Assembly (NCBI RefSeq): GCF_003334255.1
Contig: NZ_QOWU01000042.1
Strand: one strand, 5' to 3'
Origin: Escherichia coli
GTDB lineage: Bacteria; Pseudomonadota; Gammaproteobacteria; Enterobacterales; Enterobacteriaceae
DNA: 47,091 nucleotides
Below are positions 44,673 through 45,205 of the stretch, piece by piece. Position 1 is the first letter of the stretch; each line of letters starts with the position of its first letter. A program made the position numbers and the translations under genes. The notes under the pieces were generated by a model, which saw nothing but the letters and a program-made list of their open reading frames with translations, was not told the DNA's origin and did no database searches.

Positions 44673-45205
44673 AGTTACTAAATTCCTTACAATACAGTTA
44701 GTTAGACGATTAAATCTGTCTCTTTTGCCTGTAAGAAATGCTCTGTTATGTCCCTTGAAAAAGCCGCTGTGGTTGATAGTGGTAATTGGGATGTTAACTC
44801 ATAGCGGCGTGTCGTTCCAAGCGTCAAACACGTACTGACTCAACTTGAAAGCTATGACGTAGCCACCGTCTCTAAACAATCCCAAAACTTTTAGTGCAGC
44901 GCATTTTAGCCCGATGCCCCCATTCTGTCGCCGTCGCGAGACGCCGCAGGGGATAAACAGGTTTATGGTGGTCACGGTACTTGCAGACCATATGCAAGCT
45001 CTGCCAGCGGTTCGGCCTCGCTCCCCTTGGGTACATGGTCATCCTGATAAGCCTCACTAACTGACATAACCCTGATGAAGTCGCAAGAGGCTCCGCTTGT
45101 TGTCTTACCACCAACGGGGCTTTATGGATTCTATTGCTTAATATATGATTGTATCAAACTTAGACTGCATAATTTAAACGAACATAACAATCAGGCAGGG
45201 GAAGA

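Follow-up and report, generated by a model that had tools for sequence, protein, structure and literature searches.

Introduction

The closest described relatives of the DNA considered here are resistance plasmids of the Pasteurellaceae, which are classed as ColE1-like and whose replication origin has been placed in silico in a region that resembles the core of our element (PMC5864857, PMC8683028). For one of them, pLS88, the origin has been narrowed to about 800 bp that supply no protein (PMC8683028, S1 text), and copy-number mutations selected in Escherichia coli fall in the promoter and the first stem-loop of such plasmids (PMC10294622). A second group is typed as Col3M, for which PlasmidFinder uses a marker of 157 bp (JX514065; PMC10581215). 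Here we analyse a 533-bp stretch (positions 44673-45205) of an E. coli contig, situated immediately after the transfer RNA (tRNA) gene leuX; the whole stretch of DNA under analysis, 47,091 nucleotides, is called the window. We find that this seemingly empty sequence can fold as RNA, shares its core with very small rep-less plasmids and heads a defence islet, and on balance we take it to be, probably, a chromosomal copy of the RNA-based replication-origin module of such plasmids.

The stretch behind leuX is non-coding and can fold as RNA

The gene that precedes the stretch is:

44588-44672, + strand: leuX, tRNA-Leu(CAA), found by ARAGORN and by the Rfam tRNA model (59 bits)

From its end to the ATG at 45206 the longest open reading frame (ORF) has 80 aa and lies on the - strand, with 7-17 stops in every frame, which agrees with a first-pass annotation that had seen about 530 bp without a convincing ORF. 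The GC-richer core that it placed at roughly 44900..45120 between AT-rich flanks is also there, the GC fraction of 100-nt windows being 0.39-0.47 on the left (44650-44899), 0.54-0.57 in the middle (44850-45099) and 0.35-0.44 on the right (45050-45199). RefSeq annotates nothing across 44673-45205 in the genomes listed, and variability across 99 homologues has no codon periodicity. A structured non-coding RNA, one of several guesses made in that annotation, is supported more strongly than was proposed: the stretch can fold on the + strand into a structure of about 460 nt, which compensatory changes preserve across about 100 distinct relatives. Its parts are as follows:

44673-44899, + strand: 5' domain of about 230 nt, whose sequence type tracks tRNA identity (MAFFT and RNAalifold, 18 Leu-, Thr- and Ala-type sequences); one helix changes in a compensatory way from UCAA/UUGA to UCGA/UCGA
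44763-44808, + strand: stem-loop A, with compensatory changes GC/AU, GU/GC/AU and UA/UG/GC
44808-44832, + strand: stem-loop B, with covariation GUGU/ACAC, CUGU/ACAG and AAGU/CCUU (read from alignment A4)
44821-44827 with 44845-44852, + strand: pseudoknot of the loop of stem-loop B
44856-44870, + strand: hairpin of the 5' domain
44900-45136, + strand: core RNA domain of about 240 nt (RNAalifold, pair counts, covariance model R1)
44908-44912 with 45117-45121, + strand: helix P1 (AGCCC/GGGCU), which closes the core
44917-44952, + strand: P2 hairpin
44966-44972 with 45107-45113, + strand: long-range helix P3 (UGGUGGU/ACCACCA)
44980-44998, + strand: P4 hairpin
45003-45009 with 45094-45100, + strand: long-range helix P5 (GCCAGCG/CGCUUGU)
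45014-45017 with 45037-45040, + strand: long-range helix P6 (GGCC/GGUC), enclosing a short GNRA-capped hairpin in most relatives
44958-44961 with 45043-45046, + strand: possible core pseudoknot (CAGG/CCUG)

RNAalifold on 23 sequences returned 35 pairs, 11 of them with compensatory changes. In alignment A5, made with plain MAFFT, 87.5% of cells are paired as compared with 30-50% when the partners are slid, and 72 cells carry double changes as compared with 24 +/- 5 in shuffles, none of 500 of which reaches 72. In alignment A6, whose 99 distinct sequences were fitted to the model and whose pair counts are accordingly biased towards structure, 96.5% of cells are paired (31-46% slid) and double changes number 309 (102 +/- 12 in shuffles; 0/500 reach 309). 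Cells with G-U exceed those with A-C by 224 to 23, so it is the + strand, in the sense of leuX, that folds; folding of the single sequence is uninformative on both strands (z = 0.26 and 0.83). The single strands AAACAGG, GCUCU, CCUGAUAAG and CUGAUGAAGUCGC are conserved in the core, as is the 3' tail GGGGCUUUAUGGAUUCUAUUG. Model R1, built from enterobacterial cores, scores 226.8 bits against the window over 44862-45141.

Two candidate helices were dropped, P7 (AGCCUC/GAGGCU) since it holds in the window type alone, and a UGAC/GUCG hairpin that failed on A5 owing to alignment register; a hammerhead-like CUGAUGA is a coincidence and has no Rfam match. A weak R1 match elsewhere in the window (34377-34446, - strand; 13.5 bits, E = 0.005, GC 0.26) is probably due to chance. 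Known RNA families do not account for the fold: an Rfam 15 covariance scan of 44000-47091 (E <= 1) finds only the leuX tRNA and a chance-level SCARNA7 match outside the element (45490-45575, - strand; 14.8 bits against a gathering score of 65), and six related loci (E <= 0.1) return the tRNA only, RNAI not being found.

The core recurs on small plasmids without a Rep protein

R1 also finds the core on small plasmids. Indeed, the circular E. coli plasmid pDETEC86 (1,985 bp), whose sole gene encodes a serine recombinase, scores 55.6 bits (E = 1.5e-16), the qnrD plasmid p2007057, typed Col3M, 42.7 bits (E = 1e-12), and a 5.8-kb plasmid of Erwinia pyri with no recognisable Rep 85 bits, while the 2.26-kb Proteus plasmid pswupm1.3, likewise typed Col3M, is matched at E = 8e-12. 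R1 has no match in ColE1 or in the K-12 glyU control locus (L041). A plasmid of 2 kb with a single recombinase gene leaves few other candidates for the origin, and the shared core could be it.

The Pasteurellaceae plasmids match R1 in two halves, the 5' half at E = 3.6e-5 to 6.6e-3 and the 3' half at E = 0.0016 to 0.066, which are collinear and found on the + strand only; collinear BLAST blocks concur. Eight small Pasteurella plasmids had first been matched on the last 70 nt alone, and in one that we read, the 5' half of the core lies 400 nt upstream of the 3' half with the order unchanged. The core-like region is common to pB000b, pB1000' and pIG1, where it lies between the RNA I/RNA II copy-control region and mobC, and P1, P3, P4 and P6 with its GNRA (GAAA) loop can be read in pB1000' and in a P. 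multocida plasmid across an insertion of 350-400 nt. A published capture primer (PMC5864857, PMC8683028) falls in the 3' half of the core, and by the coordinate offset that we computed the copy-number mutations (PMC10294622) sit just upstream of it. In pB1000' (L016), long-range helices join the core halves across about 400 nt (3890-4445), which implies a primer RNA reaching about 200 nt beyond the origin point of PMC8683028.

The Erwinia plasmid retains control-region blocks of pB1000', and its origin region, used as a BLAST query, retrieves 54 mostly tiny plasmids of Proteus, Providencia, Escherichia, Salmonella, Morganella and Citrobacter. The stem-loops of the window (44763-44832) have no sequence similarity to the SL1/SL2 blocks common to the Erwinia and pB1000' plasmids, and the window copy is chromosomal, located between leuX and a defence gene rather than on a small circular replicon.

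A tRNA-linked family of accessory elements

The 533 bp are found in 630/5426 complete E. coli genomes (~12%), in chromosomes only; carriers include E. coli C, ATCC 11775, Nissle 1917 and enterohaemorrhagic (EHEC) strains of O26/O103. E. coli C has leuX and then the stretch directly, as in the window. The stretch is absent from K-12, as from about 88% of complete E. coli genomes, and the K-12 leuX-intB spacer has no similarity to it. Conserved backbone beside leuX in island-free strains, which the first-pass annotation had named as the finding that would speak against anything special here, thus describes the locus in part: the stretch does behave as the fixed far flank of the leuX attachment site, but it is accessory. 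No match to it was found in the phage collection.

In a sensitive search, query positions 282-465 (window ~44954-45137) recur at 73-80% identity in unrelated places, namely behind tRNA-Gly(CCC) and tRNA-Thr(CGT) in other E. coli and on many large plasmids of several genera, with sharp boundaries and different DNA on the right each time. One exact-pattern scan per public collection, with matches in 18 genomes of enterobacterial species, 6 contigs of the viral collection and 113 from metagenomes, yielded 142 loci; less 8 chance matches, these make 134 family members with 101 distinct cores, a family that spans more than 130 loci and at least 12 enterobacterial genera and goes far beyond chance. 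A complete tRNA gene stands 220-375 nt upstream on the same strand in 76/142 scan loci (Gly-CCC 46, Leu-CAA 17, Thr-CGT 8, Ala-GGC 5). When degenerate fragments are included, a tRNA 3' end precedes 124 of the 134 members, at a distance of 250-375 nt (Gly 66, Leu 34, Thr 16, Ala 8); such fragments occur where another island has inserted and also on plasmids pEh5_2 and RSY19, and only the IncA-type plasmid copies and one other locus are without a tRNA end. The 5' domain sorts by tRNA type, and cores and cargo are shuffled between types. A direct repeat of the leuX 3' end further downstream, which had been suggested as a way to delimit an island, was not detected: no tRNA 3'-end repeat (<=4 mismatches/20 nt) lies within 2-9.7 kb downstream at 19 loci, the window itself giving just 2.4 kb for this search. 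We found no earlier description of the tRNA-linked version in the literature.

Some copies have been disrupted or doubled. On pSC138 (L007) the element is split by an ISSen3 (IS21-like) insertion into 2943-3115 and 4903-5162, with a gene pair for an AAA ATPase and a nuclease to its left, and a truncated variant of this type is common to many Salmonella, Enterobacter and Klebsiella plasmids. Second copies of the element, decayed or truncated, lie on the same strand 0.6-2.4 kb downstream of the first with cargo genes between (L024, 2038-2279; L055, 2678-2787, the same as L093, 3495-3604; L107, 4711-4944); in L107 a serine recombinase gene, reduced to its first 54 codons, is joined to the second copy. 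This arrangement suggests that units of element plus cargo may have accreted stepwise. Integron-like arrays were considered and rejected, since second copies occur in three loci only and are decayed or truncated at different points; they are therefore not site-specific cassettes.

The right edge separates the element from variable cargo

Downstream of the fold, the window contains:

45137-45147, no strand: junction that marks the element's right edge; E. coli leuX loci that differ in cargo cease to be homologous here
45206-46030, + strand: first cargo gene, AbiJ-NTD4 domain protein (RefSeq name, WP_000594911.1)
46079-46705, - strand: second cargo, a 208-aa ORF (ORF list)
46753-47091, + strand: IS3-family transposase fragment (ORFs; E. 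coli C annotates a partial transposase)

Matches H52-H58 extend over query 1-465 or 1-475 with 96-97% identity before different genes take over, the 3' boundary is sharp in alignments A1, A4 and A5, and at least three different gene sets follow the element at E. coli leuX loci. The first-pass annotation was right to call the region integrase-less: no integrase gene occurs anywhere in the rest of the window, which holds the three coding features above instead. The product of 45206..46030 matches PADLOC PDC-S32, a candidate single-gene anti-phage system (E = 5.6e-104). The 208-aa ORF has no PADLOC or NCBIfam match, is hypothetical in E. coli C and is truncated by IS600 in O26. The IS3-family fragment cuts off the remainder of the window islet; related islets have a serine recombinase further on.

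Elsewhere the first cargo gene encodes PD-T7-4 (behind thrW) or a type IV restriction-like HNH protein (on plasmids), and single-gene defence systems, either known or candidate, often occupy this first position. In the case of the HNH gene that accompanies the IncA-type copy, we considered a guide RNA of HEARO/IscB type and set it aside, as the downstream genes of other copies are unrelated. Small serine recombinases recur 1-2.5 kb downstream of the element, and the serine-recombinase catalytic motif is found within 4 kb downstream at 15/81 loci vs 5/59 upstream. Plasmids and islets share these enzymes: identity is 67% between the recombinases of the Erwinia plasmid and the E. coli 550 leuX islet, and 68% between those of pDETEC86 and an E. 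coli glyU islet. Two cargo pairs, one of putative exported proteins of 188 and 165 aa and the other of a 104-123-aa membrane protein with a DUF4225 protein, follow the element at various tRNA loci as well as on a plasmid (L015, L030, L035; L004, L040, L055, L107); core and cargo therefore move together between tRNA sites.

On the other side of leuX, ahr (yjgB), which lies between yjgR and leuX, has an 878-bp internal deletion relative to E. coli C (44258-44434; junction near 44345-44351 with a 7-bp overlap), and a 58-aa fused remnant persists.

Possible transcription of the element

One candidate promoter reads into the element:

44664-44693, + strand: possible sigma-70 promoter, TCGGCA-18-TACAAT (consensus scan, 9/12 matches)

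Its -35 box lies inside the 3' end of the tRNA and its -10 box inside the element, and a T(A/T)(A/C)AA(A/T) box occupies the equivalent position in the Leu, Thr and Ala types (alignment A4). Transcription might start at this promoter or alternatively reach the element by read-through from leuX. No terminator-like site was found on the + strand in 44400-46200, nor an intrinsic terminator of leuX, the hairpin at 45089-45120 having only UUUAU after it. On the - strand, a promoter match at 44931-44903 (9/12) precedes stem-loop A, whose complement (44757-44808) is followed by UUUUU and makes a good intrinsic terminator; together they could yield an antisense RNA of about 130 nt.

Discussion

Here we have described a structured, mobile element that begins where leuX ends, and we lean towards the view that it is the origin module of rep-less plasmids now heading a defence islet. 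In the plasmids, the RNA would act as a preprimer in the manner of RNA II: it would remain paired with its template close to its own 3' end (GGGGCUUUAUGG, 45116-45127), undergo processing and then be extended by host DNA polymerase into the adjoining DNA. The module would have come with a small plasmid composed of origin, cargo and small serine recombinase that inserted just after a tRNA 3' end, and it would now head a short islet in which recombination at the element's right edge swaps the cargo, a defence gene. Priming by RNA in the plasmids, the start point of DNA, the route of insertion and any present activity in the chromosome are what we infer.

A number of points weigh against this origin reading. 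The position at which RNA would give way to DNA is a guess, the coarse mapping of pLS88 is the sole replication assay for any member of the family, and the A6 pair counts lean towards structure, as noted above. The islets have neither a far-side repeat of the tRNA end nor a tyrosine integrase, and none of the 142 genome, viral and metagenome loci appeared circular. An antisense gene like that of RNA I is not evident: the - strand promoter and terminator are found in the leuX type only and are unconserved in the Gly and Thr types. The ColE1 family proper (RF00106) was rejected as a home for the element, with BLAST against NC_001371 at chance level, no R1 match and no Rfam RNAI found. The link to a tRNA 3' end in 124/134 copies is not explained by a simple origin, and the very good upkeep of the fold in chromosomes suggests selection in place, perhaps for a role other than replication. 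This upkeep and the near-universal tRNA link leave room for two further readings, one of them an extension of the origin reading. In that extension, which is tentative and in our judgement rather unlikely, the tRNA-linked copies would be the working origin of an undescribed integrative mini-plasmid consisting of an RNA-primed origin, a serine recombinase and a defence gene; it would settle directly behind the 3' end of a tRNA gene of one of the four kinds and have its primer RNA driven by that end or by the tRNA promoter, so that the islet could be copied in place or after excision. If so, defence genes could be amplified and exchanged between plasmids and chromosomes, and the ~460-nt RNA would be a new class of large structured RNA in Enterobacterales.

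The other reading, to which we give a limited chance, dispenses with DNA replication: a free-standing or cis-acting structured RNA would be made from the leuX transcript or its own promoter. It may act as an insulator or a gate for transcription that runs from the strong tRNA promoter into the foreign cargo genes, perhaps by switching between P1 (AGCCC/GGGCU) and a local terminator-like hairpin (CUCCG...CGGGG then UUUAUGG), since two upstream GCYC strands are available as alternative partners of the 3' strand CGGGGCU and both pairings follow an A/G change seen in Pasteurella; that local hairpin, however, has only three U residues after it. The compensatory changes that keep the fold in about 100 chromosomal copies, the lack of a + strand terminator-like site in 44400-46200 and a tally from ORF lists, in which about two thirds of first cargo ORFs are on the + strand, with their start some 60-150 nt beyond the element, all accord with such a role. 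As a leader it fares less well, the cargo being unrelated between loci and sometimes on the opposite strand. To serve as a regulatory region of the downstream orphan gene, as proposed in the first-pass annotation, is unlikely to be its main function, because the genes behind the element and their orientation vary and the element itself persists. It might instead act in trans, and in either case the plasmids would merely carry the same RNA. Its GNRA loops and conserved junction strands do resemble aptamer-like RNAs; yet no ligand or target can be proposed, and the 2-kb plasmids offer almost nothing else as an origin.

We consider it improbable that the element acts as single-stranded DNA, either as an origin of transfer (oriT) or as a single-strand initiation signal by which helper plasmids would mobilise the adjoining cargo, although hairpins in single-stranded DNA covary too. 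The element sits exactly at the boundary of variable DNA, in the Pasteurellaceae plasmids its 3' half precedes mobC by about 120 nt, at a place where one would look for an oriT, and a nick or priming site in GGGG/CUUUAUGG at the right edge could send the cargo into a recipient first; this edge bears a faint likeness to the ColE1 nick region, GG/CTTAACTATG. Typical of RNA, on the other hand, are the helices (at least seven), the long-range pairing over 130-200 nt, the GNRA tetraloops and the abundance of G-U pairs. Furthermore, pDETEC86, the Erwinia plasmid and many other carriers lack a relaxase and are typed non-mobilizable, and the same element accompanies a MOBQ relaxase in p2007057 and a MOBP relaxase in pB1000. 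We give next to no credence to an ordinary spacer without function of its own, be it a trailer or terminator of leuX or a decayed integrase gene. Its place directly after leuX, the P4-like prophage that in one strain lies between leuX and the stretch, as expected for the chromosomal side of attB, and the lack of RefSeq annotation would suit a spacer. Such a reading does not fit its absence from K-12 and about 88% of E. coli genomes, homologues behind four different tRNAs and on plasmids, or compensatory changes above every control. The degraded integrase fragment suggested in the first-pass annotation finds no footing either: in tblastn, K-12 IntB matches the 533 bp at best with E = 0.33 over 20 residues, the integrase fragment of a related islet matches nothing in them, and codon periodicity is lacking.

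An unannotated, 'empty' stretch of E. coli C, Nissle 1917, ATCC 11775 and O26/O103 EHEC thus becomes a defined element with testable helices. If the origin reading holds, the fold would be the first covariation-backed structural model for the primer RNA of widespread rep-less plasmids whose origin had only been guessed before (Pasteurellaceae resistance plasmids, Col3M-typed qnrD plasmids and 2-kb cryptic plasmids). It ties these plasmids to small integrase-less defence islets at leuX, glyU, thrW and an Ala-GGC tRNA gene, which suggests a route for single-gene defence systems between plasmids and chromosomes. A covariance model of the element would allow both plasmid origins and islet heads to be annotated.

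Comparison with known systems

Genomic islands of P4 type at leuX (KpLE2/intB in K-12; a P4-like prophage in O26) resemble the islet in their site 3' of leuX and their variable cargo; they differ in having a tyrosine integrase and a far-side repeat of the tRNA 3' end, neither of which was found here. In O26 strain RM8426 (L002), a P4-like satellite prophage (1439-8000, with ogr/delta, psu, icd-like and alpha primase genes) lies between leuX and the element, and its attR copy of the tRNA end, with a 1-nt deletion, abuts the element directly. The stretch is accordingly not part of P4-type islands, which insert in front of it. RtT RNA of the tyrT operon and 3'ETS-leuZ are, like the element, structured RNAs that follow a tRNA gene directly with no terminator in between; there is no Rfam rtT match, and the element is much larger and is mobile, occurring behind four tRNAs and on plasmids.

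ColE1 offers a likeness in logic: a structured transcript of about 500 nt, RNA II with its RNA I, replaces a Rep protein, and control stem-loops, primer domain, origin and mob genes follow one another in a similar layout. The 3'-end motif CGGRGCYUAUGGA of the element resembles GGCGGAGCCTATGGAAA at the ColE1 origin (primer sequence in PMC5864857), whereas RNA I of ColE1 has three stem-loops and the element two.

The likeness is closer to pDETEC86 and the Col3M qnrD plasmids (p2007057; Proteus and Providencia plasmids of 2.2-4.3 kb), which share the core and the Enterobacterales hosts, and pDETEC86 combines element and small serine recombinase as do several chromosomal islets. These plasmids differ in being autonomous circles, in having no tRNA 3' end upstream and in insertions of 90-150 nt in the core. 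With the Pasteurellaceae plasmids (pB1000, pIG1, pLS88, pB000b), the element shares the motifs AAACAGG, GCUCU, CCUGAUAAG, GAAGUCGC, GCUCCG and GGGGCUUU(A)UGG, the helices P1, P3, P4 (as a hairpin) and P6 with its GNRA loop, the matching + strand, two stem-loops in the preceding region and the lack of a Rep protein (PMC8683028, PMC5864857). Their version has an insertion of 350-400 nt between CCUGAUAAG and GAAGUCGC, its own TTGACA promoter, a mapped copy-control region and mob genes after it; their origin point has been published about 200 nt upstream of the 3' half, and the long-range helices argue that the functional RNA is longer. The window copy, by contrast, is chromosomal and compact, with a tRNA gene before it and a defence gene after it. 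The element is, in this comparison, probably a compact, tRNA-linked chromosomal variant of a poorly characterised type of plasmid origin.

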